DNA of 56,355 nt, counting the filler, from Jimgerdemannia flammicorona (Eukaryota), in the NCBI GenBank assembly GCA_003990765.1. It is 3 parts of 3 records of this genome, joined end to end, with 100 filler letters (N's around TTAATTAATTAA, not from the genome) between each part and the next. Parts side by side here need not be neighbours in the genome. Positions count along the whole stretch, not along the records: positions 1 to 18,720 come from RBNJ01002128.1; 2 more parts are not named here. The stretch is one strand, 5' to 3'. Shown one piece after another: positions 1 through 37,638 of the stretch (within the stretch, counting starts at the first letter, position 1; each line of letters opens with the position of its first letter). The position numbers were made by a program, and so were the translations under genes. A model generated the notes under the pieces. The model was given only the letters and a program-made list of their open reading frames with translations, had not been told where the DNA came from and ran no database searches.

Positions 1-3000
1 AACCTGACCCACGAAGGCAGAAAGATCACCCTGACACCCCAGGAAGGTACCAACCACCAAGGAATCGAAATCATCTCTGCCATTCAAATGAAGAGACTCT
101 CTCGAAAAAAGGGAAACACCTACTTCATCTGTACAGTACAAGAAGTCACTGAAGCCACAAGTAGCCCAATTCCAACAGAAGCTCAAGAACTGTTTGAAGA
201 ATTCCAAGATGTATTCCAAGATCCTCAAGGACTTCCACCCAAGCGCCAAATCCAACATGGAATTGATCTTATCCCAGGATCTGAACCTCCATACAAGAGT
301 ATCTATCAACTGGCTCAACCTGAGCTCAAGACCCTCAAGGATGAATTGACCAAACTACTGGCCCAAGGATACATTGAACCCAGCCGCTCTCCATTTGGAG
401 CCCCCATTCTATTTGTCAAGAAGAAGGATGGCTCTCTGTGAATGTGTATTGACTACAGAGTCCTCAACAAGATCACCATCAAGAACCGATATGCCTTGCC
501 CAGAATTGATGAGTTACTACACCAAATCTTCAAGGCCAAGACCTTTTCTCTACTGGATTTGCGAAATGGCTACCACCAGATTCTCATTGATGAGAAGGAC
601 ATTGAGAAGACAGCTTTCCGAACATGGTTTAGACACTACCAGTTCCGAGTCATGCCTTTTGGATTGACCAATGCACCAGCAACATTCCAGTATCTGATGA
701 ATGACATCTTTGGACCACTCCTCAACATTTGTATCTTTGTGTATATTGATGATATACTAATCTACAGTGAGACAGTAGAGCTACACTATACCCACCTTAA
801 ACAAGTACTGACCCTTCTGCGAGAACACCAGCTCTATGCCAAAATGAGCAAGTGTAAGTTCTACTAAGACCAGATCAAGTACTTAGGACACATCATCTCT
901 GCTGAAGGTATCAACATGGACCCCCGAAAAGTATCAGCCCTTAAGGATATCCCTATTCCTACTACCCTCAAGCTACTCCAGTGCTTTCTGGGTATTGCCA
1001 GTTATTACTGAAGGTTTATCCAAGGATACTCTGCTATTGCAGCCCCATTGACCAGCCTGGCCCATAAAGGAGTGAACATCAAAGCTGAATGGATCCCCGA
1101 ATGCATCCTGACTATGGACCATCTCAAGAGACTCCTTACTGAGGCCCCAGTGCTAATTGCACCTGATCCTACCAGACTATTCACTCTGACTACAGATGTC
1201 TCTGACATTGCTATTGGAGTAGTGCTCAGCCAAGAAGACCGCCTAGTGGCCTACCTTTCACAGAAGCTCAAGCCAGCTGAGACCCGGTATACCACTCACA
1301 AGAAGAAACTCCTGGCTATTGTCACTGCACTCCAGGAATGGCGCCATTTTCTCCTAGGACAGCCATTTGTAGCCTACACTGATCACCATACACTGCAGTA
1401 TATTTACACATAGCCTATGCTGACTCACAGACAAGCCCACTGGATGGAAATCATTGCCAACTTTGATATGGAAATCAAGTATATCCCAGGTAAAACCAAC
1501 CGTGTGGCTGATGGTTTCTCCAGATACATGGAAGATGAACTTGTCTTCATGGTCGAAGTAATTGGAGACCTTACCCAAATGATCAAGGACAGCTACCAGC
1601 AAGACAGCCCCCTGATGAATTTCCTTCAATTCTGCCAAGACCCAGAGGCCGAGATTCCAGAACCCATGAGGCAAATGGCCAAGAGATTCACCTACCATGA
1701 TAGACTTATTTACAGAGACCATGACAGAGTGATTATACCCAACAATGATACTCTGTGACTCAAGATCATACAGGAACTCCATGATACTCCTGCAGCAGGA
1801 CACTTTGGTTTTGAAAAGACCTACAACCTCCTCTCAAGAGAGTTCTACTGGCCAAAGATGACCAAGGATATCAAAGACTTTATGGCCTCATGCGAGATGT
1901 TCCAAAGGTTCAAAAGTGGTAACAAGCTACCAGTAGGACTCCTGCAACCCTTGCCTATCCCGAGCCACAATTGGGACCAGATTGCGATGGACTTCATTGT
2001 CCAACTCCCCAAGACCAAGGCAGGATGGAATGCCATCATGGTATTTGTGGACCACCTAAGTAAACAAGCCCATTTTGCACCCACTAAGACCACTGCTACA
2101 GCACCAGATATTGCCAAGATCTTTCTTAACCAAGTATTCAGGCTACATAGCATGCCTAGCACCATTGTATCTGACTGAGATGCCAAGTTCACAAGCAACT
2201 TCTGGAAGGCATTTTTCTCCCACCATGGAACCAAGCTGAAGTTCTCTACTGCCTACCACCCTCAGACTGATGGTCAAACCAAGTGAATAAACAGGACTCT
2301 CAAACAGATGCTTAGCATCTTCTGCTGTTACAAGCAAAATGATTGGGACAAGTACCTAGTCCATACTGAGTTTGCCTACAACAACAGTCAGCAAACCTCC
2401 ACAAATAAGACTCCATTCTTCCTGAACCATGGTCAACACCCAAGGACCCCAAGTACTACTGCGAAATCAGCAGTCCCAGCAGCCCAAGATCTGGCTGAGA
2501 CCATTTCTGACCTTATGTAAATGATAAGAGATGCTCTCATAGAAGCACAAGACTATCAGACCAAGTATGCAAACTTGAAGCAAAGAGAAGCCTCCTACAA
2601 TATTGGTGATATGGTCATACTTAGAACAGACCACCTCCACCCAGACACTCTGGCACAACAACTAGCCAAGAAACTCCATGCTAGAAGAATTGGACCATAC
2701 AAGATCGTGGAAAAAATCAGTGAAGTCAACTACAAGTTGCAACTTCCCCACAATATTTGAGTACACCCAGTATTCCATATCAGCCAATTGGTGGACTACC
2801 ATGAGAACCCATTCCCTGAGTGTACAGTTCCACCACCACCCCCAATTAGGATCAATGATTATGAGGAATTCGAAATTGAGGAAGTACTTGACCACAAGGT
2901 CTGCAAATATCCCAAAACAGTCAAGCACTTTTTCCTGATAAAGTGGAAGGGTTACCCCACCCATGATGCCACCTGGGAAAAAGAAGAAGTCTTGAAGAAT

Positions 3001-3069
3001 GCACACAAAGTCCTCCAGGACTACATGGAAACACTCACCCCCCAGCAAAAGAAGGAACTACAGCTCTAA
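1..3069 (+). pseudogene. pol: Gypsy-1 pol: RT, RNase H, integrase, chromodomain; many in-frame stops
   Basis: Motifs [101 protein letters not shown]..DATWE. One frame, broken by CGA>TGA and CAA/CAG>TAA/TAG stops (439, 865, 1411, 1756, 2176, 2518, 2758). Confidence 0.95.
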
Positions 3070-3635
3070 GTATAGGAGTATACAGCAAGTAAAAAGGATA
3101 CCACATATCTTTATCTGGAAACATATAATACCAAACATTGCAGTGAAAAAAGGAATGCTATGGATAACCAACAAGAGGATACCTGAGCAAAAGAACAATC
3201 TAGTACAGTATAGCAAAATGCATTTGAACAACTCTATTTCACGCCATCTGTGTCATCTCCGCTGGATGATGACGGACGCTTCATGTGAAACTTAGGAAAG
3301 CCGACAATGTCGAAACCAGTCTAAGTCTATCCACGTGACAGATATTGTTACTAAAGAATTGCCTCAGATTACAAGAAAGTCTATTTCTAAGAAGTTCGAA
3401 CCTCCAGCTGCGACAATGGGAGCCCTCACCCTAGACAAGGATGGCCAGTCCTTGCAAATGTGCTAACCAGACAAAAAAAAAAGTGGACCAAGACCTGTTA
3501 ACCCTGTATAACCACAGACAGGTGATGAGATCTTTGAAATCAGGATTTCCTCATGTGACCAGCACATGCTCTGCTTACAGCACAGGTCATGCATTTTGCC
3601 AGAAAGTGTGACCAAAGGAAGGTCACATCAGATGG

Positions 3636-4547
3636 ATGAATAAGTATAAATACCCAAGGCAAGAATACCCCACAACTCTCATCCCCCTTTCCTCACAAAG
3701 AAAAGACAAGATAAGAATACCTGGCACCTGCTACCAAACTGCCCGCCATAGCCAGCCCCTCTCAAGCCAGGTTGACCGCCTCTTTGGACACATTGAGGTT
3801 GCCATCCAAGGAAGGAACCGCCACTCAGAGGCCCTTAACCTCTCCAGCCCAGATCTAGGACAGTATGTCCTTGACCACTGCGAACTTATTGAAAGAACCT
3901 ATCTTGCTACCAGCCGCCTAGAAATCTGGCATGAATATGAAATCGGTCACCAGCTTCTCCAATATACAAATGGCCTACCCACAGACCAGGTCTCTGATTG
4001 GATCTACCTAGACAGGCACGAGCAAAGACTTGCCAAGAAGGTCCATCAAATCATGTACCATGCACCCTTCGCAATTCCCAATCTCAACTACATACAACTG
4101 AAGGACTTCCAGAACCTCTCTTTCCTCGAGGTTGATGCCCTAGAAGTCAAGGTCGCCCAAGAAGCCAACTCCTAGATTGCCCTCAAGTCTACTGACTGCA
4201 AACCCTACTGGAGCCCCCTCCTGAATGACAACCCTGACCAATGGCTCCAAGGTCTCTCTGACCTCTTTGAAGGACCACCTATCTGAATGGATATTCCCAG
4301 GCATAAAGATCAAGAGCCCTACTTGGATGGCCCCAACCGCATCAGATGGAGAACCCCTATACCAGCACCTATTCCAATGCAAGAACCATTTGCAGACCTT
4401 ATTGGCTTCTCCATCCTGGACAGCAAGCCCTCTGCAACCACCAACCCCCCTACTCTTGAAGAAGATGGTAATGACTCTGAGGAGAATTCCCCACCTTTCT
4501 CTCCCCTTGTTCTCAATTTCTCAATCAATGAGGATATTGATTTCTAA
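3636..4547 (+). pseudogene. Accessory ORF ('ORF-X') between pol and the PPT of Gypsy-1; unknown function
   Basis: Open frame 3636-4175 plus downstream segment 4287-4547. Translation aligns by eye with ORFs at 54890-55654 and inside both Gypsy-3 LTRs. Confidence 0.7.
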
Positions 4548-4558
4548 GGAGGGAAGGA

Positions 4559-5317
4559 TATAATAGAATGAACGAACATGATGAATGATGAGCAATGAAC
4601 GATGAACGATCACATGACCCAACAATGATGTCATCATATGAACGAAGCATGACATATGAATTACGAATGATGCGAACGATGCAAAATGATGCGGAAAATG
4701 ATATCCAGCTTATCCCCAACAATCGGCGCCACAGCAACAGTTGCCACAGCAGCTGATCATTGCCTAGTAATTGAGGTCCTGATCACAAAGTTGTTTTTGT
4801 CAAAAACCACCTAACAAAGGTCGCGATCACAAACCTCATTATAGTTACCAAATTAGTCACTCATACTTAGTCAGAAATCGCAGACCAACTTGTATAAATA
4901 CCCCCCAGTTTCCATCCGAAATAAAGCAGTTTTAGTTCAGTCCTTGATACAAGAATCAAGTCCCCCCCACACACACACATTCCCCTGAGTCTTAGTAATG
5001 ACATCTAAGTGACTCTAGTGTTTCTGACTAAACTCCAGAAGCCTAGCTAACTTCTGCCAGAACAGAGACCGGTATATAAATTCCCAAAGACTTAAAGTAA
5101 TCCCATTGAACCTGAATTCCAAGGCGAATTCAGTCTGTGCACAGCAAAGAACAAGACCCTTGAAATAGGGTACAAGAGAAAGACCTTTGAAAGATAAGGC
5201 ACTGCCACTATACTTACTTATAAGCGAGCGCTTCCTCAAACTGAAGGCTTCTTAGTACACATAGTGTACTAAGTCCCTAAGTAATAGTCCACTTCCCTAA
5301 TTATCCTAAGGATAAGA
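4559..5317 (+). repeat. 3' LTR of Gypsy-1
   Basis: Starts directly after the PPT with TATAAT (decayed TGTAAT). Short ATGAACGA-like repeats in U3, TATAAATA at 4893-4900, AATAAA at 4920-4925. 3' end approximate. Confidence 0.7.
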
Positions 5318-8300
5318 GAGGGGTAGAAGTGAGAGTTATTACAGATAACCTCACAGCTGAGCAGTTGGGAGAAGTTGACCTACATGTGATGCCGGAGGAA
5401 TATTGGGCAAGGATTCTGTATAGAGATGGAGTGGTGGAGGCATTTATAGTGGAGATACTTGCAATTCTTAAGGAGGAGGAGGGATATGTAGTAGAGGTAG
5501 TGAGGGAGACTGAGTTGGTGATCATTGCTGGTGAGCAGACTGCCTATTGTTGGATAGAGTGTCATGGATTGCAACTCTGACAGAAGGCATGTCTGGAATA
5601 CTGGGAGGACTTCAAGGAAAAGGAGGATGGGGCAATGGTGGAACTTCTGTCTGGGTTGGAGGCCAGGCAACTAAAGAGAAGGCACTGGCTGCAGAACATA
5701 ATTTGGACTTGGCACAGGAGGAGCTGACTACAGATTTGTAGAGGGTGTGGTTGATAATCAACATTATACATTATTCCTTATGAACAGTACAACTAATATT
5801 TTTTCTTTGAATATAAATGGGCTATAGGGATTGGGGTGGCATAGGAACATTTTTACTTGGCTTAAGAGATTGGAGGCTGATCTCTTTTTACTGCAGGATG
5901 TACAGTGTGAGAATGAGGAAGATCAAGTGGAGTGGACTAGAGAATAGAGAGAGGCTACTGCTTGGAATGAAAAAGTGGCAATTCTGGTGAAAAAGGGTAG
6001 AGGGGATTTGGGCAGTATTCAGGGCTGAGGGGACTATTTGGTCTGGGGAGAATGGCACCATCCTGGGTGGGAATCAGTGAGGGTTGGCTCCTGCTACTGC
6101 CCTGTGGTTAGGGGTGAGTGGATTGAGTGAATTAGAGACCTGTTGGAGGAGGGTGTTTTCTTGGAGGAAGGTGTTGATGTACTGGGAGAGAGTGGTGGCC
6201 TGGATAAGTGGGAGGAGGTGGAGAACCTTAGCTCCTTAGGGAATATGAGCAGGGCATGGTGGGGTGACAGGAGGGTCTATATACACTGGATTAATGGACT
6301 GGATACAAGGATTGATTGGATTCTGACAGCTGAATATTGGGGTGCTGATGTTTGGAGGACTCTGGAGGTGGAGTGGTGCCCTTGGTCTGATCATTGGAGG
6401 CTACTGGGGCAGGGACAGTTTGGGGGGAGTGGAGATGGACCCAGATATTGGTGCCTTAACTCCTCACTACTGGCTGAGAAGGGGTTGTGGGACCCATGGG
6501 TGGAGGATGTCCAAGTGAAGATTGCCACCTGGATACACCATAGATGTCTGGTGGATGAGGCTGAAGGAGGCTGCAAGGGTATATTGGAGAGGAGCTGGTA
6601 GGGAGGCTGGGAGGCAGAGAAGGAAGTGAGTATGGTGTGCTTCCAATAGGCTGATTAGATTGCAGATAGAGTGGGCTGAGTTGCTTCACTTGGAAGGAGT
6701 AGAGGATTGGAGGTTGGAGTGGGCGAAACTGGAGGTAATGGAGCTGCAACAAATATTGCAAGCAGAGGAGGAGATTTGTATAAAAGGAATGGCTGCCAGG
6801 CTACAATAGCAGGGGCATGAGGAGGGAGAGTGGCCTACTAGGTATTTGTTAAGGCTGCTCTAAGCTAGAAGGGTGCACCACTGATGGGATGGGGTCTTGG
6901 ATGCCAAGGGAGATATGGTGCATGGCATACAGTAGATCTTGGGGGTACTGAAGGATAAATGGAAGAGCCTGTGTAGTGAGGAGGAAGAGGGGGCTGATGA
7001 GGAGGCAATTGAAGATATACTGGCAGAGTGGGTACCACCACAAGTTGAAGGACTAGAGGATTTGATCCTACCAGTCCAAGAGGGGGAGATCTAGAGAGTT
7101 CTGGTGGCAACTAAGCTGGGGATGGCACCAGGAGAGGATGGGCTACCTTGGGACTTCTGGAAGAAGATGGCAAAGGTTCCTGGAGTGTTAGGAGAGATGG
7201 CTGTCATCTGCGACCATATGGAGAGCAGGACTTGGGACTGGTGGCCTTATTGTACAAAGATAAGGGAAGGAGGGAGAACTGGAAAAATTAGAGGCTGATC
7301 ATGCTTCTGGATATGGATAGGAAGATAGTGACTAAGGTGATTGTTGTGAGGCTACAGAAAGTTGCCCAACAGGTCCTAGGTGAGGAGCAGTGAGGCTTTA
7401 TAGGGGGCAGACTTATCAGGGATGGAATTGCCTGAGTGCATGGTATCATTGAGGGGGCCTGGGCTTGTGGACTGGATGGCAGACTGGTCTTTTTAGACCA
7501 GGAGAAGGCCTATGACCATGTTAGGCGAGTTTGGCTAGGTAAGGTGCTGGATAGAATTGGTATTTCCCCAAGGTTTCGGGCTTCTATGCTGAATTTGTTG
7601 GAGGGTAGTAGGGCTGTAATGTTGTATAATAGGCACTGGGGTTTGGCATTTCCCTTGAGAAGAGGAGTCCCTCAGGGGGACCCACTGTCTCCTATCCTCC
7701 ATGCTCTCTCATTGGAATCTTTGATGGATAGGATACATCAGAGGGTGGAAGGGCTCTCTGTATATGGTGTGGTGTGGAAGGTAGGGGCCATTGCAGATGA
7801 TATGGTAGTTGGACTTGGATCAGTAGTAGATGTGGAGGCACTCAAGGAGACAGTGGAATGGTATGAGGCACACTCTGGGGCAAAACCCAACTGGCATAAG
7901 TGTGAGACAATGGTGCTAAGGAATGGGCTGGTAGGAGGGGACATCATTAGAACAATTGTCCCCACTGGAGAGGTGGTGAGGTATTTGGGCATCTTCTTCT
8001 CTGTATATGGATCTGTCTTGCCATAGGTGTGGTGGGAGAGGAGAGTGGCCATTTGGGGAGAGGCTCTTAGAAGTTGGGGGGGTTGCCATATCTCCCTGAT
8101 AGGGCAGGTGTCAATTTTGAATGTCTACTGGTTTCCCAAGTTATGGTATGTAGCATACTACTTAGACTTCCCAGCTTGAGTGGTGAAGAGACTGATGAAA
8201 TAGGCTAGGGATTGGATTTGGGCAGGGAGGAGGTCCCAGATCAGTTGGGATACTCTTGTAACACCAGTGGTTAGAGGAGGACTAGGCCTCATGGATTTCT

Positions 8301-9198
8301 CTAAGTGGCTGCACTGCCTATGAGCTTAGTGGTTGAAAAGGGCTGTTGAACTGCAGGGAGGAGGTTGGGTACCACTACTGCAGAAGGTTTGGGAGATGAG
8401 GTTCTCCCCTCAGAGGTCCTCAGGAGATTTGCTCTCTCTGGTGGGCCTGACTGGAAGCTGATGGCTATGGTTTAAGGGCTTCTGGTGGGGGGTGGTGGAT
8501 GGAGCACACAGGATAGGACTGCACTGGAGAGGTAATGAGGGAGAGGAGCTGTGGGGCCCAGATATGTGGCAATGGGACAGACTCCTTCTGGGGAGTATTC
8601 TACTTACTGAGTTTGATATTAGTGAGAGAGTGGAGTGTCAGTGGGAACTTGGCCAGGATCTTTGGCCAGGTAGTTGGCAGGCTGTGGGGATTGGTGAGGA
8701 GTGGGACTGGGCAGGGGTCTGGTCATAGAGTACTGAGGTGAGGTGGTAACTCTCTCCTAAGTTCTAGATAGTATGGTGGAGGATGCTGAGGAGGAATATC
8801 ATGTTGAATTTTGGTTCTGAGTATCTTGTGGAGGGTGGCCAGCTAGATTGTGAGGAATGTTATAATATAGGGCAAGCTGGGGGGTTTGTGCAGATGTCTG
8901 AACATTGGCTGGGAGAGTGTGAGGTCCTGGGGGACTTTTGGATAGTAGTAGAGAATTGACTGGGTGTGAAGAGGAGACCTGATGGAGAGAGAGATCACTA
9001 GGAGGATTTGGAGTCCCAGCTAGTAGGTGGTGTGGGCAATGGTTGGCTTACTGTAGGGTGGGTTTTAGCAGTGTGGGTAGGGCTGACTGGTCATTGGCTG
9101 TATGTCTTTTTTTTTTTTTTTTTTTTTTTTTTTATAGTCACTTGGACTCTTCCTTTATTACACCCATTTATCCCATATAAGTACAGTGAACCCACCCC

Positions 9199-16101: not shown

Positions 16102-16513
16102 GTTGCTAGTCACCTTTCATCAAAGACATTGTCAAAAGTTTTGCCTGAGTCTTGTATCACCTGAATGTTACCAGTGAAAAGTGTTGGCTATATGTCTTTG
16201 AGAGAGGTGGCAGATGGGTCTACAAGAGAGGTTGTTAAGGTGGGAGGGGTTGATGGGGGACTTGCTGACTGGGTGGTGGGTGGGTTAGAGTCCTCAGGGT
16301 GGTAAACATCATCACCTGGTGGAAGAAATATGTAATCAGAGTGGTGGACAGATGGAGATGGTGTTAGACAAAGTGGTCTTTTATCAGGTAGGGGTAGGAG
16401 GGGGGGGCCCCTCTAGGGGGATTGGATAGGGTTGGGCCTTGTGTATTATTTAGATGATAGACAGTGATTTAATAAAGGGAGAAGTCTGAGTAACTATAAA
16501 AAAAAAAAAAAAA

Positions 16514-18076
16514 GGTGGGGGCTTTTGCAGATAACATAGTGGTTGAACTTGGATCAGTAGCAGATGTAGAGGTACTCAAGGATATAGTGGAATGGTATGA
16601 GGCACACTCTGGGGCGAAACTCAACTGGCATAAGTATGAGATAATGGTGCTTGGGAATGGGCTGGTGGGAGGGGACATCATTGGAACAATTGTTCCTATA
16701 TGAGAGGTGGTAAGGTATTTGGGCATCTTCCTTTCTGTATATGGGTCTGTCTTGTTATGAGTATGGTGGGAGATGAGAGTGGACATTTGGGGAGAGGCTC
16801 TTAGAGATTGGGGGGGTCATCATATCTCCCTGGCAGGGTGAGTGTCAATTCTGAATGTCTACTGGTTCTCCAAGCTATAGTATGTGGTCTATCACTAAGA
16901 CTTCCCAGCTTGGGTGGTGAAGAGACTGATGAAACTGGCTAGGGATTGGATTTGGACAGGGAGGAGGTCCCAGATCAGTTGGGATACTCTTGCAATACTG
17001 GTGGTTAGGGGAGAACTAGGTCTTGTGGATTTCCCTAAGCAGCTGCACTGCCTACAGGGAGGAGGTTGGGTACCACTGCTGCAGAAAGTGTGGGAGATGA
17101 GGTTCTCCCCTTGGGGGTCCTCAGGAGATTTGCTCTCTCTGGTGGGCCTAAATGGAAGCTGATGGCTACAGTTTAAGGGCTTCTGGTAGGGGGTAGTGTA
17201 TGGTACACACCAGATAGGACTATGTTGGCAAGGCAATGAGGGGGAAGTATTGTGGGGTCCAGATATATATATAGCAATGAGACAGACTCCTTCTGGGAGG
17301 TATTCCACTTGCTGATTTTGATATTGGTGAGGGAGTGGAGTATCAGCAGGGTCTTGGCCAGGATCTTTGGCCAAGTAGTTGGCAGACTGTGGGGATTGGC
17401 GAGGAGTGGGACTGGGCAGGTATCTGGTCATAGAGTGCTAAGGTGAGATAGTGGCTTCCTCCTAAGTTCTGGGTAGTATGGTAGAGGATGCTGTGGAGGA
17501 ATGTCATGTTGAATTTCCATGCTGGGCATCTTGTGGAGGGCAGCTGGTTAGACTGCAAGAAATGTTATAATGTAGGGCAAGTTGGGGGATTTGTGCAGAC
17601 ATCTGAACATTAGCTGGGGGAGTGTGAGGTCCTGGGGGACTTTTGGATAGCTGTAGGGAATCAGCTGGGTATAGAGAGGAGACCAGATAGAGAGAGAGGT
17701 CACTGGGAGGATTTGAAGTCTCAGCTAGTGGGTGGTGTAGATAATGGTTGGCTTACTGTAGGGTGGGTTTTGGCAGTGTGGGTAGGGCTGGCTGGACATT
17801 GGCTCTTTATTTTTGAGGAGGGGCGGCAGATGAGTTTACAGGAGAGATTGTTAAGATGGGAGGGATTGATGGTGGACCTGCTGACTGGGTGGTGGGTGAG
17901 TTGGAGCCCCCAGGGAGGTAAACATTATTGTCTGGTGGAAGAGATATGCAATCAGAGTGGTGGGCAGGTGGAGATAGTGTTAGACAAAGTGGTCTTTCAT
18001 CGAGTGGGGATAGGAGGGGTCTTGTGTATTATTTAGATAATAGACAGTATTTTAATAAAGGGAGAAATCTGAGTAA

Positions 18077-18720: not shown

Positions 18721-18820
18721 NNNNNNNNNNNNNNNNNNNNNNNNNNNNNNNNNNNNNNNNNNNNTTAATTAATTAANNNNNNNNNNNNNNNNNNNNNNNN
18801 NNNNNNNNNNNNNNNNNNNN
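18721..18820. other. Artificial contig-join spacer (N44-TTAATTAATTAA-N44)
   Basis: Six-frame-stop linker at 18765-18776 centred in Ns. Identical structure at 37539-37638. Confidence 0.97.
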
Positions 18821-20548: not shown

Positions 20549-23500
20549 ATGGCTTCATTAAAGAACCTGGCACCCCCACAGCCGCACCAACGCCCGTCCC
20601 CCCTGACCCCCGGTGTCCCCATGGAGAGGAACGTCTCCGGTTCCTCTGCCGTCTCTTCAAACTCCTCTACCACTGACTCGGGCGTCACCGTCACCGTCGA
20701 CCCTCAACCGCACCAGCACCCGCCCGCCAAGAACCGCCCACCCTCCATCAACTCAGTCACCTCACATGGCCGTTCCCTCAACCGCATCATGCACGGCAAC
20801 GTTCGCCGCCAAAGCACCATGTCTGGCTTCTCAACGATGAGCGAAACTTCGCTGCCGTGGACCACCAAGGACATGGGCTTCAACGCGATATCGGGTACGT
20901 GCTACTACCCTATCTCTCGCATTTTTTTTTTCCCTCAATCGAGCCACGTTATATTCTAACCTCCTCTCTGCCCTCCTTCCTCCACAGGCGTCCTAAACGA
21001 TCCCGCGCAACGAACAAACGCCGCTCTCAAACCTACCAAGAACGATATCCCCCCAGTCCCACACGTCCCCATCCGCAAAATCAAGCCCTCCGAGTTCGAC
21101 CAGTACCTCAAGCACATCGCCCCCGTCTTCGACCGCTACAACTACAACAAACTCATCGGCACCGAAGGCACACCACGCCTCGACTCCCCCAACGACTCTC
21201 CCTACGCCTCCGTTCTAAATCTCATCGACAGTGACCCTTCCTCCCATCTCTCCCCGGATTTCCCAGCTCACCGTCGCGAGAGCTCCCGAAACCCGTACGG
21301 CATCCCTGCTTCACCGATCCTCCCTGCCGTCTCAACCGCAATCCCGGACCGTCCGCGACGCAAAGTTTCAGAGAAGGACCCACCCATGATTGAGAACGTG
21401 CCCACCATCTTCTTCGACCCGGAGTTCAACCTCGAGAACCCGCGCACCTTCGACACCGTGTGCGAGGGCGCGGACATCATCGGTAATAGCGGGCCCAATC
21501 CGCCCGTCGCCACAAACAGCATCCTACAGGAGAAGCTATCGCACTACCTTGATACTGTCGAAGTTCACTTGATCCAGGAGATTTCGCGGCGATCCAACTC
21601 CTTCTTCGAGGCCCTATCCAACCTACAGGCGCTCCACCAGGAGACGCTCGACTGCGTCGCCCAGATCCATTCCATCCGGCAGAAGATGAAGCGCATCCAC
21701 AAGTCGCAGGTTCGCCAGGGCCTCGAGGTCGTCCGCCTCAAGCGCCGCCGCCAGAACGTTGGACAGCTCTACAACGGCATTAAGATGGTCCAGGAGATCC
21801 GTTCTTCTCAGCCCATGATCCAGATTCTCCTCGGCCAAGGTGATTACTTCGCCGCACTAGACCTCATCGACGAAGCAAATCGCGTCCTCCAAGGCGGCAC
21901 CGGCGGACCACCTGGCGCACCACCATCCCATGACCACCGCGCAGACCCGCGCGCGTCCATCGACTCTCGTCAATCACTCGACGTCTACTACCACCCATTC
22001 ACACAAGATCCGCGCCAATCCCTCGATGGCCGACCGTCCTTTGACTCACGCCGTTCTCTCGACGGATACGACCCCTCTCTCGATCACGCTCTTGTTCCGC
22101 GAAGCCCGGCCCCCCTCCCATCTCCATCCCCATCTAAACAGGGATTCCAGCTACCGCCGCTCGACCTCCGCGCCGTGCGCGCCCTGCTCAACTTCTCGTC
22201 GCAGCTGAACGAAATGTACCGCGCCATCGGAGTCATGATGCAGCACGATCTCGTCACGGTGCTGCTGGCGGAGCTGCAGCGAGGGTTGGAGACCATGGAT
22301 GTCGCGGCCGCGGTCGGCGAGTTGATGGCTCATAGCCGGGAGGCGAGCGTGCAGGCCCAGATGGCCAAAAGGGATACGCATCATGTTAAAAGGACCGTTA
22401 CCGTCGAGGATGTGAGGGCCGAGGAAAAGTTAAGGGAACGGATTGCCCCCAGTGTGATGGGACTTGTGAGGACCGGGAAGTTGGGGCCCACGTTGCAGGC
22501 GTATAGGGAGAGGCTGATGGTAGAGGTGAAGGAGTTGATTAGGCAGGTGGGTGATGGCGGAGTAGGGATGGAAGGAGAGTTATGATGGGTTGGGTTTGGA
22601 GAGGGAGGGAGGGGAACGCAGTATCAAAAGGGGGTTGTTATGGTACGAGAGAGAGTGCGTCATTTGTGCTATCACGAATTTTCGGCTCGCTTGGTCTCTC
22701 TGTAGCAATATCCGTCATCGATGGTGATGCCGACCGTGGCGGAGCTCGAAGAGCAAGCCGAGGCGGATTTATCCCAGAAGGAGCAGAGGTGAGAAGGCCG
22801 TTTCTATCGCGCCCGCCCTCGTCTCTCGAGATGCACCGCGTCCCTATTGCACCACACTCATTTTTTCCTTTGTTCTTCCCCAGCTCCAAGCTGTCCAAAC
22901 AGCTCAGGAGCATGACCTTCGATTCCTTCTCCAAAATGCTTGTCTCCATCTACGCTGTCCTCCTCGACGCCATGAAACGCATCGCCATCTACCACGAACT
23001 CTTAGTCACCATCATGATCGACGCAGACCGCCATCCCACAGAATCCGTCTCCGTCCCCACCCCCTCCGCCGATACAGACGACGCACCCACCTACGCTGCG
23101 ACCCTTCCGCTCGTCTCTACCACGGCCGCCTACCATAGTCTCGTTACCGAGTCCGCTGAGATCGTCTTCGCTGTCGCCGACCTCGCCCACGTTCGCTGCG
23201 CCAAGCTCGTCGGCGTACGTGCAGATCAGAACGCCCAGCTCAATCCAACAGACTTCTACCGTCTCTTCGGTGTCACATGGAAGTTCGTCGTCGAGGGTGA
23301 GGGACTGTGCGGGCGCACGTGCTATGGTCTCCGCGGGACTATCATGTCCCAGGCCAAGTCGTTCCTCAACCACTTTCATATGGAGAAGATGAAGCAGCAG
23401 ACACTTCTCATAGAGAACGAACAGTGGATACAGGCGGGGGTGCCTATTGACTTTCAGCGCATCGTCGATCGTATCATCGCGTTTGCAAAATCAGAGGGCG

Positions 23501-25123
23501 TTGATTTCGAGGACCCACCCCCCACAGCCGCCGCTTCGGCGCCCATGCAAGTGGTCGATGTCCTAAGCCCCATACCGATCCGCGCGGGGACGATGGACTC
23601 AATCGGTAGTACGAACGCTGCGGGAGTGGAGGATGTTAGGTCGGGAGCATCTTCCCCTACAGTTGGTGGCGCAGGGGTTGAGATTATGGCGGAAAATGAT
23701 AGTAATAGGTTCTTAGTTGTGAATGGGCAGAGCTTCTTTATGGTTGGGTGTGGGTTGCTGTTAGTGAAGATGCTTGATGATTATTTGAGATGTATGGCGA
23801 ATATCCCGTCGTTGACCACGGATGTTATGCAGAAGATGATGGAGTTATTAACGGTATGGTCTGGTTTCTTTTTCTTGGGGAGAAGGGTTAGGTAGAGTTA
23901 CGATGGTGGGTTTGATTCTAGGTTTGTGCGTAGTGACCGGTCGATGGTTGCCAATTTGCATGGCGCTCCTGAATTGATTCGACCCGTTTCTACCAAACCC
24001 AGTTGTTCAACTCGCGCGTGTGCGGCGTTATCCTCGGCGCTGGCGCGATGCAGTCGGCGGGCCTCAAAACCATCTCCGCCAAACATCTCGGTAAGCGCCT
24101 TGATCAGTTTCACGGACCTCGTTCAAAACAGCTCTCGTTGAGCTGGATCGTCTCACGTTTCCATGTCACCTTCTTTTTACAATCCAGCTCTCGCGTCACA
24201 GTCCATTGGTATGATGATCGCGTTGAACCCGGCGCTCGAGGCCTGCGTACGACGTAATATGACGGCTAAGCAGGCCGTCATGCTAACGGAATTTGAGAGG
24301 ATCGCAAAGGTTTGTTTCGGGCGGAGCAGGATGGTGGGAGAGCAATGGAGGAGCGTTGCTGTCAACGGTTGGTTTGGCATTTATATTGTGTTCGCCGTAA
24401 ATCCCTCCCTTCCTAGGACCTCAAGGACCACCAGGCCGAGGTGTACGCGAAGCTGGTGTCCATCATGAACGATCGACTGGCGACGCATTGCAAAGGGTTG
24501 CAGGTAAGTCGTACTGACCAGTCGAGCAGAATGTTAAAACGTTACGGTGACATGCGTATTGATCCGTTTCCCTTTATCTTGTCTTTACCTAGTCCATCAG
24601 TTGGGATCAACAGGAGCCGAACGCCAAAGTCCCCAACTCGTACATGGACGTTCTCGTCAAAGAAACCACTACCCTGCATAAGGTACTGAGCAAGTACCTG
24701 CCGTTGGAGGATGTGCAGGTTTGTATACATTTCATCCTGGGTGGAAGGTTGGGAGACGGTTTGTGGTTTCAGGCTTGTGATTAGAGTACATTTCTTACTA
24801 TGAGCACGGAGCTGACGCGGATGTCAACTTCGATTAGCATATCATGGGTCAAGTCTTCGCATCGTTCACAAAAAAACTGGCAGAAGAGGTGGAGAAACTG
24901 AAAGTCACGACGGCGCCGGGGAAGACGAGGTTGGTTGTCTTTTATTTTTATTTCAATCTGGTTGCAATCATGTCAACTGCCCAAAACTTTTTCTGACAAC
25001 ATTCGCTTTGCCAGGCTGCTCGCCGACGCAGAGTTCTTCCGCCGCAAATTGTCTGCCCTGGGGGACGTCGAACCCCCCAGTGATGAAATTGAGGTCGTGA
25101 TAAACGCGATCCAAGTCGAATGA
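20549..25123 (+). CDS. VPS54: Vacuolar protein sorting 54 (GARP subunit), ~1193 aa; exons 20549-20894, 20988-22546, 22706-22788, 22884-23853, 24003-24090, 24188-24309, 24417-24503, 24593-24718, 24838-24929, 25015-25123
   Basis: GT..AG introns in phase. Motifs NAISGVLNDP, VPTIFFDPEFNLENPRTF, LQEKLSHYLDTVEVHLIQEISRRSNSFFEALSNLQ, FNSRVCGVILGAGAMQSAGLKTISAKHLALASQS, LVKETTTLHKVLSKYL. Confidence 0.95.
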
Positions 25124-26545: not shown

Positions 26546-27008
26546 TATAATAGTTCTAGTTTCTTTAAGAGGAAGTAGCTAAATCTGAAAGTTCTAGTTG
26601 ACCTAAAGTAGCTTGAAGAGATACTTAAAGGTTCAAGGATTCTTAAAAGATTTCTGAGAGAAAATATTCTGAGCTTTATTCAGGCAGAGAACAAGAATAT
26701 TTATATATGATCAGAAAGAAAGATCTGAAAGGATCTTGGAAAGAAAGAGAAATGCCAAGAAATAGATTCTTACAAAGCTAACTAATATAATTCTACAATG
26801 TTCTAAAAGGTTCTATAACTAGCTAAGATAAGATACTTAGTACCAAGGAAAGATAAGAATATTCTGGTAGTATCTGAGTACCAAGAGAAGGTTTTTAAAC
26901 AAGTAGAAGATAGTGGAATATAGTAGAATATTTAAGAAATAATAAGAAAAGACTAACTAAAAGATGTGAAAATATACTAAGATTAAATATGATTGTGAAA
27001 TTGTTATA
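26546..27008 (-). repeat. Gypsy-2 3' LTR
   Basis: Direct repeat of 33591-34003, adjacent to the PPT. Confidence 0.9.
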
Positions 27009-30000
27009 TTTCTCTCTCCTTAAGAATCAATATCCTTATTGAGTTCTTAGGTAATACAAGACTAGATATATTTAACTAAAATTTCTCAAACTTGTATTGA
27101 TGCATTGGTGAAGATTAGTCATTCTCATATAGAGTAGAGAGCCTATTACTATACTAATCAACTGGGAGAAATTCAAACCTAGCTAGTAGCTTTATTTCAG
27201 TAGACTTCTTGTTCATTAAATGTTCTGCTAGTTCCAAGGTCCCAAAGTAAACTTCCAATATATAAGGCACTGGTTATTACTATAGGTTATCAACAATCCA
27301 AAAAAGTCACTATAGGGATTAGGTAATATATTTTATCTTGAAGTCTTGAAGTAGATCTTGAGAGTTCTTGAGATTGACCAGCAGTTTCCAGATAGTATTA
27401 TATTCAGGATAGCTCATCTACTGGATAGGTATTCAGGACAGTGATAGCAGATTTATTTATCAAGGATTTTCTCAGCTTTATACTCAATATGGTCTTCAAT
27501 AATCACAAGGACAGATGGCTTGGAAATTTGACCAGGGTAGGGTGGTGACTGGTTCCAGATCTTGAGATGTGATATATGAAAGACTGGGTATACTCTCATG
27601 GTTTCAGGTAGCTTAAGGCAGTGGGAGGATGTAGAGACTTATTTAGTGATCTCAAAAGATCCAATATACTTAAGTTGAAACTTGTTTGAAGGGCAGTTGA
27701 CTTGAGATTATATCTTAAGGTTCTTAGTAGACAGTAGGACTTGATCTCTAATAGTATAGGTAATATCATGGCATTTCTTATCAGCATACTTAGATTGATA
27801 CTATTAGGCCTTCTAAAGATTTATAATGGCAATCTTGAGTAGAGTGTCCATTTTATCTATAAGGCTCTTAGTGGTAGGAACTTGTATTTGACTGTTTTTC
27901 TTGAAAGAGACTAGACTTGTAGGGGTCTCAGAATCTTAACTATAGAGTAACCAGAAAGAGGAAAGACCAGTAGATGATTGGACAGCATTGTTGTATACAA
28001 ACTCTATATAAGTCAGATAGTAGTCCTAATTATCTTATCTATAACAAATATAGTTTTTAAGTATCTGTTTTAAAGTTCTGTTCATATACTCAGTTTGTCC
28101 ATCAGTTTATGAGTGAAAGGCAGTAGACATAGCCAATTGGATTTCCAGAGTCTTGAAGAGAGTTTGCCAGAAGTGACTGGTAAACTTGAGGTTATGATCA
28201 CTGACAATTACTCATAGTAGACCATAGTGATGGAAGATAAACTTGAAGAAGATTCTTGTAATCTTGGGTACAGTAACATTAGTAGTGGTTAGTTCAACAA
28301 CCATAGTCTTGGTCAGATAGTCAATGAATATAATAATAGCATCTGCACCAGATTGAGTTTGTAGTAGTTGAGTTACAAAGTCCATAGTAACTTGTTTAAA
28401 TTTCTTGGTGAGAATTGGCAGTAGTTATAGCAAACTAGCTGGTACTTGGTTGATAGACTTATTGTACTGGCATAGATCACAGCTAGTAATATAGTTCTTG
28501 ATTTCCTTGACTATGCTTGGCCAATAGTAGTAGCATTAGATGTTCTTGACAGTTTTCTTGATTTCTAGATAACTGACAAGAGGGGAGTTATGATGTTCTT
28601 GCAAAATCTTGTAGTATAGGTTCATACTTTCAGATAGATAGACTTGATCTTGATGATAGATCAGGTTGTTCTCAATAGTATATATATCTTTGAGCTTATT
28701 TAAAAAAACTCTAGTAGCAACTATGTCTTCTTTATAAGCTTGCCTAATTTGGTCTAGGAATTCTGATATCAAGGTGACTTGTATGATTATGGCAAGGTCT
28801 GGGCATCTTAATAAGGCATCTAGTACTATAAGTATCTTACCAGGCTTGTAGATGATCATCAGGTTGAAGGTTTGAAGCTTGAGACTCTACTTGGCTTGTT
28901 AGTATGATAGAGTAGGCTGGGTGTTGATATATTTGAGAGATTGATGGTTAGTAATGACATCAAACTCAACACCTTCTAAATAGCATCACCAGTAGTCTAA
29001 TATGTATATGTATTATTATCAGTAGTTTCTTCTCATGAGTGACTAGCTTCTGTTTGGCTAGAGCTAACTTGCAGGACTCGAAAGCAATAGGATAATATTC
29101 TTTGCTATAATCTTGTAATAAGACTACTCTAATAGCAAAATTCAACACATTAGTAGTGATTATGAATTTTAGGCTTTGATCTATATTATGCAGGACTGGA
29201 GCATGGGTTAGGTAGTTCTTGAGTTCTTGAAAGACTTATTGACAGAAGAGGTCTCAGATATAGGGTATATAGTGGTCTGAGTACAAGACCTTCCTCATGA
29301 GGTTAGTCAGTGGCTTGGCAATACTAGAGAAGTTTCTGACAAAGTAATAGTAGTAGCCAGCTAGACTAAGAAGGAATCAGAGTTCTATAAGGTTTGACAG
29401 AATAGGCTATTCTTGAATTGCCTCTATCTTGTGTAAGTCTACTTGAATTCCCTATATAGAGATAATGTATCCAAGATATTCAACTTGTTCCTTGAAGAAT
29501 TCACACTTCTTGAGCTTAGTATAAAGCTTATATTTTCACAGGATCTCCAGAACTATTCAAATACATTTAAGGTGTTCTTCTTTAGTTATACTAAAGATCA
29601 AGATATCATCAAGATATACCAATAGAAAAATAAATAGTTGGTCCTTAAATATATTGTTCATTAAGGTCTAGAATGTGGCAGATACATTGGTGAGACTAAA
29701 TACTAAGATCAGGAATTTGTAAAGTCTAAAGGGGATTATGAATACAGTCTTAGAAATGTCTTCTGGCTTGATTTGGATCTGGTGGTATTCTGATATAAGG
29801 TCCAACTTGGTGAAGTACTTGGTATTCTTAAGAGTATTAAAGATTTGATCAATCAAGGGTAGCAGATAGTGGTTCTTGACAGTGAGCTTGTTGAGTATAC
29901 AGTAGTCTATGTACATTTGCAGGATACTATTCTTCTTCTTGACAAATAAGACTAGTGAGCCATAGGGAGATTTGCTTGGCTGAATGGCTCCTCATATAAG

Positions 30001-30088
30001 TAGTTCTTTTAGACTGCTTCAATTTTGAGTGGTAATATGTGGTATATATATTTCTTGGGTGATATAGCTTCTGGGGTCAGTTTGATTT

Positions 30089-30091
<3 letters not shown>

Positions 30092-30128
<37 letters not shown>

Positions 30129-31486
30129 GGCTGTTGCCTCATTTATTAACTATCTATAATATGTCACATATCCTCATACAACATCAGTAGCCCCATTCTA
30201 CCCCAATCTCAACCCACCTTCACTCTCATCCAGTCTTGCACCTTTAGAGTGTGAGTTGCGACCTCACTGCCTGAGTAACTAGATCCTCCTACCCAGTCTG
30301 CCCTACCTGTAGGTATGGGTTGTGAGCCCCAACCACCTCAAGTACTTGGCATCTAGTGCACCTGACCTACCCCTATTAGTGCCTCCTGTCTTGCCCATCT
30401 AGCTCATCTTATCTGTCTTGCCCACTCATGTTACCCATATTGCCTATGCTGCCATCTTGCCATCTTGTCTGTCTTGCCCATCTTGCCCATCTTGCTCATC
30501 TTGCCTGTCTTGCCCACCCATGTTGCCCATATCTCATGTTGCCTGTGTTGCCCATGTTATCTGTGTTGCCTGTGTTGCCCATTTTACCTGTTTTGTCTGT
30601 CTTGCCCATGTCGCCTGTCTTGTCTGTCTTGCCCACCCATGTTGCCCATATTGCCCATGTTGCTATCTTGCCATCTTGCCTGTCTTGCCCATCTTGCCTG
30701 TCTTGCCTGTCTTGCCCATCTTGCCCACCCATATTGCCCATCTTGTCTGTATTGCCCATGTTGCCCATTTTGCTCATTTTGCCTATATCACCTGTCTTAC
30801 CATCTACCCATCTTGCCCATATCACCCATCTTGCCCATCTTGCCCATCTTGCTCATCTTGCCCATCTTGCCCACCCATATTACTTATGTTGCCCACCCGT
30901 GTTGCCTGTGTTGCCCATGTTGCCCGCCTATATTGCCCATATTGCCCATATTACCTGTTTTATCCATTTTGCCTGTTTTGCCTATCTTGCCCATGTTGTC
31001 TGTCTTGCCGTCTGCCCATCTTGCCCATGTCACCCATCTTGCCATCTTGCCATCTTGCTGTCTTGTCTGTCTTGTCCATCTTACCTGTCTTGCCTGTCTT
31101 ACCCATCTTGCCTATCTTGCCTGTCTTGCCCATATTGCCTGTCTTGTCATCTTGCCATCTTGCCTATCTTGCCTGTCTTATTCATCTTGCCCATCTTGTC
31201 CATCTTGCCTGCCCATGTTGCCCATGTTGCCTGTGTTGCCTATATTGCTCATGTTGCCCGCTCATGTTGCCCATATTGCCTGTGTTGCCCGCCTGTGTTG
31301 CCTGTATTGCCCATGTTGTCCGTTTTGCCCATTTTGCCCATGTTGCCTGTCTTGCCATCTGCCCATCTTACTCATGTCACCCATCTTGCCATCTTGCCAT
31401 CTTGCCCGTCTTGCCCACCCATGTTGCCTGTATTGCCCATGTTGCCCCTGTCTGTGTGGCTTAGCTCACTCTGAGTGGTTTGAGCT
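30092..31486 (-). mobile_element. Non-autonomous poly(A) retroposon with internal VNTR, inserted in Gypsy-2 pol
   Basis: poly(T) to 30125. 17-bp TSD GGTCAGTTTGATTT(C/T)AT at 30075-30091 and 31487-31503. Gypsy-2 pol resumes after the second TSD. Confidence 0.88.
30387..31448. repeat. 9-bp minisatellite (CTTGCCCAT / CTTGCCTGT / GTTGCCCAT variants), more than 100 units
   Basis: Directly visible tandem array. Confidence 0.95.
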
Positions 31487-32127
31487 GGTCAGTTTGATTT
31501 TATGATCAACTTCTCATATAGGTGGTAGATCAGGTAGCTTATCTGAAAAGACATCCTTGAATTCTTCTAGCAGTAACTTGATACTTTCATTGACTGATAG
31601 TCTCTTATCTTGTTTCTTAAGATAGACTATTACAATAAAGGCATACATCACCTTCTTGAGTGCTCTCTTATGTATACTGTATAGCTAACAGTATTGCAAT
31701 CTGGGTCTTGCTTATAGTCTTGTCTGTCTTGATAGTAATATTGACTCCATCTTAAAGTAAGGTAACTTCATTCTTGTACTAATTAATGTCTGAGTTGTAT
31801 TTTGTAAGCTAAGGTTTTCCTAGAATCAGGTCATAATCTCCTAGTGGTATGATCTTAAAGTCTACTTATTCCCAATATTTCTGGATCTTGATGAGTAGTT
31901 TGGCAGCAATTGACTCAATGGAGTGCAGTATGCCATCTGTAGTAACTATATTGTTATTCTTAAGTATAGGCTTGATGAGAATCTTGAGCCTTTTGATGAG
32001 GTTCTGATTGATAAAGTTCTCTGTAGCTCTACTATCTATAAGTATTTGAACTTCCTTTCCTTTGAATAGATTTTTGAAAATGAGTATAGCTTGAGCTCAG
32101 TTTTTAGTAAGACTTACTGCTTGATCA

Positions 32128-32535
32128 GTGCTATCAAAACCTTTTTGGTCTTATTTGGTTTCAGAGAGTTCTTAGACTTCTATAATCTTAAGTTGATTGG
32201 CTTTTTCTAGAATTATTTGCATAGCTCAGTCTCCTTCCTTGACTGTATAGTCTTGATTCTTCTAGTTGATAAGCAGAACTTGAACTTGTTCTTAAAAGTC
32301 TGAGTCAATAACACCAGTGCCTATATCTAAATGATGTTTAATACTGAGTCCTAATTATGGTACAATTTTGGCATAATGTCCTTCAAGATATTAGACAGCA
32401 ATTCCAGTAAGTACCAGAGTTCAGCTTTTGGCTGGAATGGTAACTTATTTGACAGAGTATAGGTCAAAACCAATGGCTCCTTCTGTTTGATATTAAGAGG
32501 CCTGGGCCTTTGAGTGAAGCTTCTTGATCTTGAGC
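32128..32535 (-). pseudogene. dut: dUTPase domain of Gypsy-2
   Basis: GAIGFDLYS (motif 1), P*LGLS (motif 2), GVIDSDF (motif 3), GD*AMQ (motif 4), KGFDST (motif 5). Confidence 0.85.
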
Positions 32536-33590
32536 TTGGGTTGACTGATAGTAGGGCTAACAGGTGTATCTTTAGACAACATAGTGACTGGTCTAGAAGG
32601 TTTGCTAGTCTTCTTAGGATGTTTAGTTACAATATGTCCTATTTAGTGACAGAAGAAATAGACTCCAGATTTCTTCAAGTGATTCTTTTCTTCAGAGGTA
32701 AGCTTGGTATTCTTTTTGTTCATAGTGTCTAAATTTATTAGTACTGGGCCAATTGTCCTTAGTTGATTTTTATAACAGTTCTCAAAGTGATTATTCTTAT
32801 AGTGTTCTGGTTCAAAGTGGTTGTCAAAGGTAATGACATCAAACTTATTAGTGATCCTCATAGCTTCATCAAGGCTTTGTGGCTCTTCTAACTTGATCTT
32901 GACTTATGTGTTTTCCTTCAGACCTCAGATATAGTAGTCTATCTTTTCATCCTCAGCTATCACTGGTAGTTTGAGTAGGATTGATAGGAATTATATATTA
33001 TAGCTTTATATAGACTTGAGTTGCTTGATGTTTGCTAGCTTGTCTCTGGCTAGCTTGGTAGTATTAGTAGGCTTGAACTGTCTGTGAAGGGCTCTCTTGA
33101 AAGCTTTCCAATCTTTGATTTATATATATAAATGTATAGATATAGTCATAATATAATTGTATCAAATGGCTATATTTCTTTAGAGGAGTGTAACAGCAAA
33201 TTGAACTTGTATGTTTTCTTTCATTCTTATAAGCTCAAAGTATTAGTCCAATTGGAAGGTCTATATATATATCTGTAGATAGTCCTTCTCAGTGACCTGG
33301 CTTGAGTGGCTTGAAACTGACTAGTACTATAGTAGAGTGTGATATACTTACAGTTATTGTTTTTACTATTCTAGTTGTACTTAAAGTACTTAGATTTAGT
33401 AGGCCATAGAGGTGATCATGTCTTCTATACTGATATGTGATTCTCCTACTTCTTCTATAGCAGAGAGATTCAGCTAGTAGGCTAACTCTTCATAGCTCAT
33501 TTTAGATTTGTGTAACTAGTTGTGATGGATTTCCAAATTTATATAAGATTTCTTAATAAGGTAAGGTATAATAATACCACTACTATCAAG

Positions 33591-37538: not shown

Positions 37539-37638
37539 NNNNNNNNNNNNNNNNNNNNNNNNNNNNNNNNNNNNNNNNNNNNTTAATTAATTAANNNNNN
37601 NNNNNNNNNNNNNNNNNNNNNNNNNNNNNNNNNNNNNN
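37539..37638. other. Artificial contig-join spacer
   Basis: N44-TTAATTAATTAA(37583-37594)-N44. Confidence 0.97.

Follow-up and report, generated by a model that had tools for sequence, protein, structure and literature searches.

ORF-X, an Unannotated Gene Between pol and the 3' Long Terminal Repeat of a Clade of Fungal Ty3/Gypsy Chromoviruses

Introduction

Extra genes located between pol and the 3' long terminal repeat (LTR) are already known from LTR retrotransposons of both plants and animals. In plants, additional open reading frames (ORFs) in the sense orientation at this position (aORF-3S or eORF-3'F, as in Athila and Bagy2) form a recognised class, and the passages that deal with them describe the frames as mostly env-like and their function as mostly unsettled (PMC7264820; PMC6317226). 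The LTR retrotransposons of bdelloid rotifers contain varied ORF3s after pol, and the account of these elements reports some that are not env-like, in more than one lineage (Rodriguez, Kenefick, Arkhipova, 2017; PMC5408684). Here we describe ORF-X, a gene found in the same place in Gypsy-1, a Ty3/Gypsy element of Jimgerdemannia flammicorona (GenBank assembly GCA_003990765.1). The DNA analysed, below called the window, is 56,355 nucleotides (nt) long, filler included, and joins three parts of this genome; it holds two copies of ORF-X, three Ty3/Gypsy elements named Gypsy-1 to Gypsy-3, and several other repeats. The gene was noticed in a first-pass annotation made from the sequence alone.

Among retroviruses, the foamy viruses encode an accessory protein, Tas (Bel1), near the 3' end of the genome, and the sources state that both an internal promoter and the LTR promoter are bound by Tas (PMC517496; PMC8670036). 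When it comes to fungi, Novikova et al. (2010) list in the legend to their Figure 3 an 'add. ORF' whose function is unknown, for one or more full-length Gypsy elements (PMC2864245), while a supplement to that paper does not mention it in its text. This 'add. ORF' could be compared with ORF-X by the wording of the legend only, and the identity of the two is not established. Beyond it, the literature available as open full text, Repbase-type annotations aside, gave no described accessory protein family of fungal Gypsy elements.

The extra genes of LTR retrotransposons are the raw material of retroviral accessory and envelope genes, and very few of them have a known role. ORF-X is a compact case: a soluble protein of about 270 amino acids (aa), with intact natural copies, a candidate second promoter, and a host that mutates repeats. 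Were it to regulate transcription or dampen silencing, this would show that fungal retrotransposons share the strategy of the complex retroviruses; should it have no measurable effect, it adds to the orphan genes of transposable elements.

ORF-X in the Gypsy-1 Element

ORF-X is a real gene, unannotated, internal to the element and under selection, that belongs to one clade of fungal Ty3/Gypsy chromoviruses, and it represents a new protein family in a known slot of retroelement architecture. Gypsy-1 itself is a Ty3/Gypsy chromovirus. Its pol lies on the plus strand at 1-3069, truncated in the 5' end by the edge of the window, and encodes reverse transcriptase, RNase H, the zinc, core, and SH3 parts of integrase, and a chromodomain, with the stop codon at 3067-3069. 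Pfam matches between 442 and 3066 comprise RVT_1 (E 2.9e-32), RT_RNaseH_2 (1.3e-30), Integrase_H2C2 (7.5e-21), SH3_Tf2-1 (1.1e-12), and Chromo (1.2e-13). A non-coding spacer of about 650 nt with stops in all frames (3070-3716, +) separates pol from the first, A-type copy of ORF-X (3717-4547, +; natural stop TAA at 4545-4547). The polypurine tract AAGGAGGGAAGGA (4548-4560, +) abuts this stop and is followed by the 3' LTR (4561-5343, +). The first-pass annotation had placed an extra sense ORF between the chromodomain and the polypurine tract, and this is indeed what is found; like the plant aORF-3S, it is a sense frame between the pol stop (3069) and the start of the 3' LTR (4561).

The frame that contains copy 1 runs from 3612 to 4547 on the plus strand, and the Gypsy-1 peptides quoted in the first-pass annotation occur exactly in it. 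It is open at 3612-4172 and then interrupted by an in-frame TAG (4173-4175) and an in-frame TGA (4284-4286). The start had been given as 3636, where an in-frame ATG lies upstream of a TATA box at 3645, but alignment with intact homologs places the conserved start at 3717, where copy 1 has ATA and the homologs have Met1. Three A-type relatives have Trp at the site of the TAG and Arg or Lys at the site of the TGA, and the lesions in the start codon and at the TAG are G-to-A transitions. Copy 1 is a pseudogene, since it has ATA for ATG at the start and two in-frame stops.

The boundary between gene and LTR is seen in an independent locus as well. L001, a metagenome contig of 1535 nt, carries an intact ORF-X and is the sole locus obtained from the set metagenome_contigs. 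Its ORF-X stop is followed by the same purine run (blastn identity 88.6% over 35 nt) and then by TGTAATAAG. The Gypsy-1 LTR begins with TATAATAG and ends with GTTATTACA, the inverted complement of its start, giving a terminal inverted repeat TGTAATA...TATTACA that is present in intact form in L001. Within the LTR, a TATA box is found at 4893 and an AATAAA at 4920-4925. Where soil-metagenome contigs were aligned to positions 1-5600, the sequence beyond 5343 is ACTTGGTAGCAGCAG.. (five contigs of X1 and three of X5), which presumably resembles a primer-binding site of the initiator-tRNA type. These ends read like what the 5' LTR junction of other Gypsy-1 copies would show. Positions 4676-5423 have a higher contig depth than positions 1-4675, which would agree with this, but depth in contigs is a measure that cannot rank the parts and was given no weight for the LTR boundary. 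Because of the polypurine tract, the inverted repeat, and the ends beyond 5343 that resemble a primer-binding site, the LTR is placed at 4561-5343 and ORF-X is internal to the element; it lies outside the LTR in both Gypsy-1 and L001.

Gypsy-1 DNA is partly present in 20 sequencing runs from 15 studies, mostly of soil, none of which contains half of its sequence words. The spacer shows indels and skips in metagenome contigs, and blastn gave no alignment between positions 3070-3716 and the DNA upstream of the gene in L001.

The Second Copy in the Window

The second copy of ORF-X (B type) is located on the minus strand at 54851-55654 and is heavily decayed. A tblastn search of the whole window with copy 1 found it as two collinear high-scoring segment pairs (HSPs; 40% identity over 107 aa and 33% over 57 aa, E 3.7e-23), and the next best match had an E-value of only 0.7. 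A hidden Markov model (HMM) of the family matches copy 2 at 1.4e-51 and 8.4e-24 and, in a six-frame search of the window, matched nothing else, the gag and pol regions of Gypsy-2 and Gypsy-3 included. Identity between copy 2 and the intact metagenome protein P0011 amounts to 61% over 114 aa (E 6e-34) and 67% in a second HSP of 152 aa (E 1e-56). Eight stops fall within these two HSPs, which are separated by a frame shift; a further frame change near the C-terminus was read from the translated frames. The first-pass annotation had reported a clear homolog at 54890-55654, and it is one; it lies on the minus strand, and its extent is corrected to 55654-54851. Both copies of ORF-X in the window are dead.

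About 200 nt past the copy 2 stop lies the LTR core TATAAATACCC (54634-54644, -), followed by GAAATAAAG. Upstream, a 5'-truncated copy of a long interspersed nuclear element (LINE) begins about 130 nt from the start of copy 2, and the pol of the element with copy 2 lies beyond the window. Between copies 1 and 2, blastn gave no alignment of at least 100 nt. This part of the earlier claim, that the similarity is found at the protein level between elements differing in DNA, has stood. The further claim, that several unrelated elements share the gene, is unsupported, and only two lineages are certain to carry ORF-X; the rotifer ORF3s, too, occur in more than one element lineage. The LTRs behind the two copies have both the core TATAAATACCC and a nearby AATAAA in common, and vertical descent within one chromovirus clade therefore appears to be the simpler reading for the two ORF-X lineages.

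A Protein Family Under Constraint

ORF-X has relatives only among short, unnamed proteins in the searches made. A phmmer search without length restriction of 1.84 billion representative proteins (cut-off E<=0.001) gave eight matches, three of which are convincing (P0001, P0002, and P0003; E 3.8e-50 to 2e-22, identity 42-61%). P0004 and P0005 are long repeat proteins, while P0006-P0008 were not inspected. No fused or longer forms of ORF-X appeared in this search. With P0009-P0016, which came from a cluster look-up and from a search with a profile, the number of ORF-X relatives is 11. All are encoded on metagenome contigs of at most 4848 nt and are either unnamed or called 'hypothetical', and their full-length forms have 247-342 aa. 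Pattern matches in two further sets contained no ORF-X relatives (0 of 78 in viral_contigs and 0 of 65 in genome_contigs). The gene is present in many copies: the two in the window, which are of two types, the one in L001 with the same junction between polypurine tract and LTR, and those encoding the 11 metagenome proteins.

The family falls into two types. Copy 1, P0001, P0009, and more distantly P0002 make up the A type, while copy 2, P0003, and P0010-P0016 make up the B type, and the two types are about 35-40% identical. Within the A type, copy 1 shares 57% identity with P0009 over 245 aa (E 1.8e-85) and 44% with P0002 over 301 aa (E 1.6e-70). Similarity across types is significant as well, with E 3e-41 between copy 1 and the intact B-type protein P0011.

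The ratio of nonsynonymous to synonymous substitution rates (dN/dS) between copy 1 and L001 is 0.20 (Nei-Gojobori NG86, 268 codons; pN 0.253, pS 0.654), with 81, 62, and 130 differences at the first, second, and third codon position. It is 0.16 for the first 215 codons and 0.40 for the tail. Because of this ratio, and because the frames have stayed open across 35-60% protein divergence, the comparison shows that the ORF-X protein is under constraint, and that the gene has stayed open and under purifying selection in other copies. The first-pass annotation had proposed a conserved, selected retroelement gene, and the intact homologs of 247-342 aa together with the ratio bear this out; on each point where the proposal could have failed it held, the similarity between the proteins being significant, dN/dS being 0.20 and not near 1, and no known domain being matched.

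Features of the ORF-X Protein

The intact homologs reveal an N-terminal part, a middle, and a tail. Helices are predicted at approximately residues 18-150 in the AlphaFold2 models, which are of low confidence. The middle part is conserved and rich in proline and aromatic residues. Conserved blocks in the protein are LNL, W-[HQ]-EYEIG, AKK[IV]HQ..RHAP..IPN[LI].Y, WNP[IL]L.DNPDQ[WF]LQG, and F[EQ]GP.I. The last 90-180 residues form an acidic tail of variable length. From residue 161 to the end, the isoelectric point is 4.05-4.25 in all four intact homologs examined, which confirms the acidic C-terminal tail described in the first-pass annotation. Two short hydrophobic motifs are kept in the tails of both types, F-x-[DN]-L-I-x-F and, near the C-terminus, P-x-x-L-N-[FI]. 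Islands of hydrophobic residues within an acidic, disordered tail are typical both of activation domains and of motifs that bind adaptors.

The highest mean Kyte-Doolittle value over 19 residues is 0.59-0.74 in the same four homologs, meaning that there is no membrane helix, as had been noted from the Gypsy-1 copy. Neither a signal peptide nor a membrane helix, the features by which an env-like protein would be recognised, was found in ORF-X. The protein is predicted to be soluble and not Env-like, because none of its stretches is hydrophobic enough for a membrane.

Searches for a known domain were negative. The earlier statement that no gag, pol or env domain could be recognised agrees with Pfam, where no family matched at E<=10 for the pieces from the window or for five of five intact homologs. 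A sequence profile search of PDB with ORF-X gave no chains, and the best score in the ESM Atlas was 0.88, to unnamed clusters and below the line of 0.9. The AlphaFold2 models had a mean pLDDT of 34.2 (alignment of 6 rows) and 44.6 (12 rows), too poor to assign a fold. Foldseek with the better model gave no matches in PDB at E<=0.001, while the 207 rows below this cut-off are noise, the model being poor.

A Candidate Internal Promoter

The 12-mer GTATAAATACCC, which contains a TATA box, is found at 3644-3655 (+), 72 nt upstream of the ORF-X start, and is a candidate internal promoter. On the sense strand of positions 1-5343, TATAAA occurs at three sites only (3645, 4893, and 5075), and the complete 12-mer only at 3644 and at 4892, the latter being the TATA core of the LTR. 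In L001 the sole TATA[AT]A in the 1535 nt is located at -80 from the ATG. Copy 2 has TATAAAAG at 55737-55744 (-), about 90 nt upstream of its start (ATG 55654). A TATA box thus precedes ORF-X in three of three loci, at -72 in copy 1, at -80 in L001, and at about -90 in copy 2. The spacer around the TATA boxes is not alignable between the loci.

The 11-mer TATAAATACCC has four sites in the window, at 3645, 4893, 46981 (-), and 54644 (-). Three of the four lie in the LTRs of three elements, namely Gypsy-1, the copy 2 element, and Gypsy-3 (46981). By estimate, the number expected by chance in 56 kb is far below one, and the sequence marks the LTR TATA of these three elements. It appears to be a core promoter that these chromovirus lineages have kept. 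Beyond the 12-mer, the internal region and U3 have only scattered 8-mers in common. A motif, CA[CT][AG]TGAC, occurs in the internal promoter region and in U3 of both copy 1 and L001 and is absent from pol and ORF-X as well as from copy 2. ORF-X may be transcribed from its own TATA promoter 70-90 nt upstream, giving a subgenomic mRNA that ends at the poly(A) signal of the 3' LTR; we regard the chances for and against this as even.

The Gypsy-3 LTR

Gypsy-3 is located on the minus strand, and the pol genes of Gypsy-3 and Gypsy-1 share 38-50% identity. The polypurine tract and the LTR start are found at about 40930 and at 40908, and the 3' LTR covers 39604-40908, cut off at 39604. The 5' LTR extends over approximately 46850-48552 (about 1.7 kb), running to TATAAATACCCC at 46981. 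The LTR is accordingly longer than 1.3 kb, which is unusual.

In the first-pass annotation both Gypsy-3 LTRs were said to carry a distant homolog of ORF-X. The quoted strings are present, in the 3' LTR at 40239-40538 (-), sense to Gypsy-3, yet their homology to ORF-X is unsupported. The stretch is collinear to the ORF-X profile over about 100 residues, with HMM scores from -2.9 to 2.2 bits. When the rows from the window were left out of the HMM, the 3' LTR copy scored 2.2 bits and the 5' LTR copy -1.8 bits; the value of 2.2 was reached by 0 of 150 shuffles (maximum 2.1) and by 0 of 32 other tiles of the window (maximum 0.3). The alignment of the stretch to ORF-X by hhalign had a probability of 4.6%. 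Reverting the transitions gave no gain, the reverted LTR reading scoring 1.8 bits, a value reached by one of 150 shuffles. An open stretch of 135 aa in the 5' LTR had an hhalign probability of 0.7%, with a second WHEY string, further down, aligned out of order. A string resembling the tail, DMISS...PILLIN, is unique in the window and was matched in 0 of 40 shuffles, with a motif that was written after the string had been seen; the stop after it is missing in the other Gypsy-3 LTR copy.

The decayed sense frame of the Gypsy-3 LTR, upstream of its TATA, has 135 open codons in the 5' copy and, after the transitions have been reverted, 172 codons, as against 66-85 in the other five frames. As a third homolog of ORF-X the Gypsy-3 LTR is not established (2.2 bits by HMM, 4.6% by hhalign), while its position is suggestive. 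It is possible that a very diverged ORF-X has moved into this LTR.

Decay of the Elements

The decay of the elements resembles repeat-induced point mutation (RIP) and is combined with loss of CpG, a pattern also seen in many ascomycetes. Of the mismatches between the Gypsy-3 LTR copies, 158 of 166 are transitions, mostly CpA>TpA. The CpA>TpA decay is a sign of an ascomycete-type host more than of an early-diverging fungus. For pol, ORF-X, the LINE, Gypsy-3, and copy 2 the ratio of observed to expected CpG is 0.03-0.23, compared to 0.33 in the spacer, 0.56 in the Gypsy-1 LTR, and 1.08 in a host gene of the window encoding a Vps54-like protein.

Comparison with Known Systems

ORF-X and the plant aORF-3S are alike in position, orientation, and presence in many copies. 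However, the plant proteins are described as mostly having membrane helices, while ORF-X has none, resides in a fungal host, and displays no sequence similarity to them, as there were no Pfam matches. The rotifer ORF3s, as reported, contain GDSL lipase and DEDDy exonuclease domains, whereas ORF-X is without a recognisable domain.

The foamy-virus Tas may serve as the closest working analogy. Both genes have a 3' position, and the internal promoter of foamy viruses finds a candidate counterpart in ORF-X, where a TATA core is common to the internal site and the LTR and the C-terminal part of the protein is acidic. ORF-X shows no sequence similarity to Tas (no Pfam matches for five of five intact homologs and none in PDB), so that the relation is one of analogy and not of membership.

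Possible Functions of ORF-X

We favour, tentatively and with somewhat less than even confidence, the reading that ORF-X is a lineage-specific sense accessory gene of fungal chromoviruses, probably with an internal promoter of its own, and we guess that its product is a trans-acting regulator. The gene, with its approximately 250-340 codons in the sense direction between pol and the polypurine tract, would be expressed from its own TATA box as an mRNA 3'-coterminal with the element transcript. The N-terminal part of about 150 residues would bind a component of the element or the element DNA, and the acidic disordered tail would recruit host machinery, such that ORF-X might act as a trans-acting regulator or an adaptor. 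An acidic tail together with a promoter-like TATA is compatible with trans-activation. That ORF-X activates the promoters of its own element in the manner of Tas is a narrower proposal by analogy, and we consider it doubtful. More speculative still would be a clade of 'complex' retrotransposons in which a regulator with an internal promoter switches on both this promoter and that of the LTR through the common core GTATAAATACCC, and in which a shift of the polypurine tract in Gypsy-3 has moved the gene into the LTR, where it is carried twice; we hold this to be improbable.

Several observations weigh against the favoured reading. The sequence that the internal site has in common with the LTR ends at 12 nt, and a local match as good was obtained in 9 of 300 shuffles. 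Copy 2 has a second TATA about 10 nt before the ATG, so the box at -90 is not unique. Among the 23 listed runs there was no RNA run. The dN/dS value is rough, as dS is 1.5 and thus near saturation, and it stems from a single pair of which one member is a pseudogene. Finally, neither a DNA-binding domain nor any other domain was recognised by Pfam, PDB, Atlas or Foldseek, and the functional part of the reading is a guess from composition and analogy.

The gene could instead be expressed like env, from a subgenomic mRNA spliced from the LTR transcript, with a role in assembly, trafficking or nuclear import. Sense ORFs in this position are usually expressed in this way. For barley Bagy2, splicing is reported (PMC7264820). 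Both copy 1 and L001 have a C-rich tract ending in AG directly upstream of the start, and the tail motifs could equally well be adaptor-binding motifs; the region where a splice donor would be sought, the 5' part of Gypsy-1, is located outside the window. On the other hand, a TATA box has been kept between -72 and -90 in three of three loci despite a spacer that cannot be aligned, and the protein lacks the signal peptide and membrane helix of an env product. We find this explanation rather unlikely. A different role for the protein would be counter-defence against repeat-directed silencing, be it RNA silencing, DNA methylation or heterochromatin, or RIP. The host evidently attacks these elements, given the 95% transitions between the Gypsy-3 LTRs and the depletion of CpG, and counter-defence is the role of many accessory genes in complex retroviruses. 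However, ORF-X has no similarity to any known suppressor in Pfam, the Atlas or the PDB profile search, and both copies in the window were inactivated by exactly such mutation, so that any protection is not absolute; counter-defence seems unlikely to us.

Retroelements are described as capturing host sequence (PMC7264820), and ORF-X might be a transduced piece of a host gene carried as passive cargo. This is very improbable. The three convincing phmmer relatives are all short and belong to the same family, with no long or host-type protein among them, and in both of the diverged types the gene has kept its position beside the LTR. The remaining suggestion is that ORF-X belongs inside a long LTR, within U3. 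The sag gene of mouse mammary tumour virus is such a gene inside the LTR. In Gypsy-3 the polypurine tract follows close after pol, and the LTR of more than 1.3 kb has a decayed sense frame, but the comparison with sag is relevant only if this frame is a moved ORF-X, which is not demonstrable. In Gypsy-1 and L001 the LTR start (TGTAATA) comes after the ORF-X stop and the polypurine tract, with the gene outside, and we consider an LTR gene the least probable of these explanations, hardly to be expected at all.

Other Features of the Window

Gypsy-2 occupies 26548-33978 on the minus strand and has LTRs some 390 bp long (26548-26937 and 33593-33978). The chromodomain stops about 400 nt short of the 3' LTR, and no match to ORF-X was found in the element. 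At 30366-31502 there is a block of imperfect direct repeats, spaced at multiples of 9 nt, and three plus-strand frames are open there at the same time (379, 364, and 353 codons). Both GC and AT skew are strongly negative in this region, and the one frame tested had no Pfam match. Four runs of 44 N each, read as masked or unresolved sequence, are found at 18721-18820 and 37539-37638, beside repeat junctions. Searches of the window gave no Rfam matches, and a tRNA scan gave no genes.

A LINE-like family with RVT_1 is represented by copies at 5344-9109 (+), 14479-9430 (-), 16512-17804 (+), and 55787-56355 (+). These copies are extremely asymmetric between the strands, having a sense-strand GC skew of +0.3 to +0.5 and a ratio of observed to expected CpG of 0.03. 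One of them begins exactly at the end of the Gypsy-1 LTR, and another cuts off the copy 2 element. The host gene mentioned above is located at 20960-24465 (+) and encodes a Vps54-like subunit of GARP, which looks fungal and has Pfam matches to Vps54_N and Vps54. It lies in a GC-rich island (0.55-0.59) between blocks of transposable elements.

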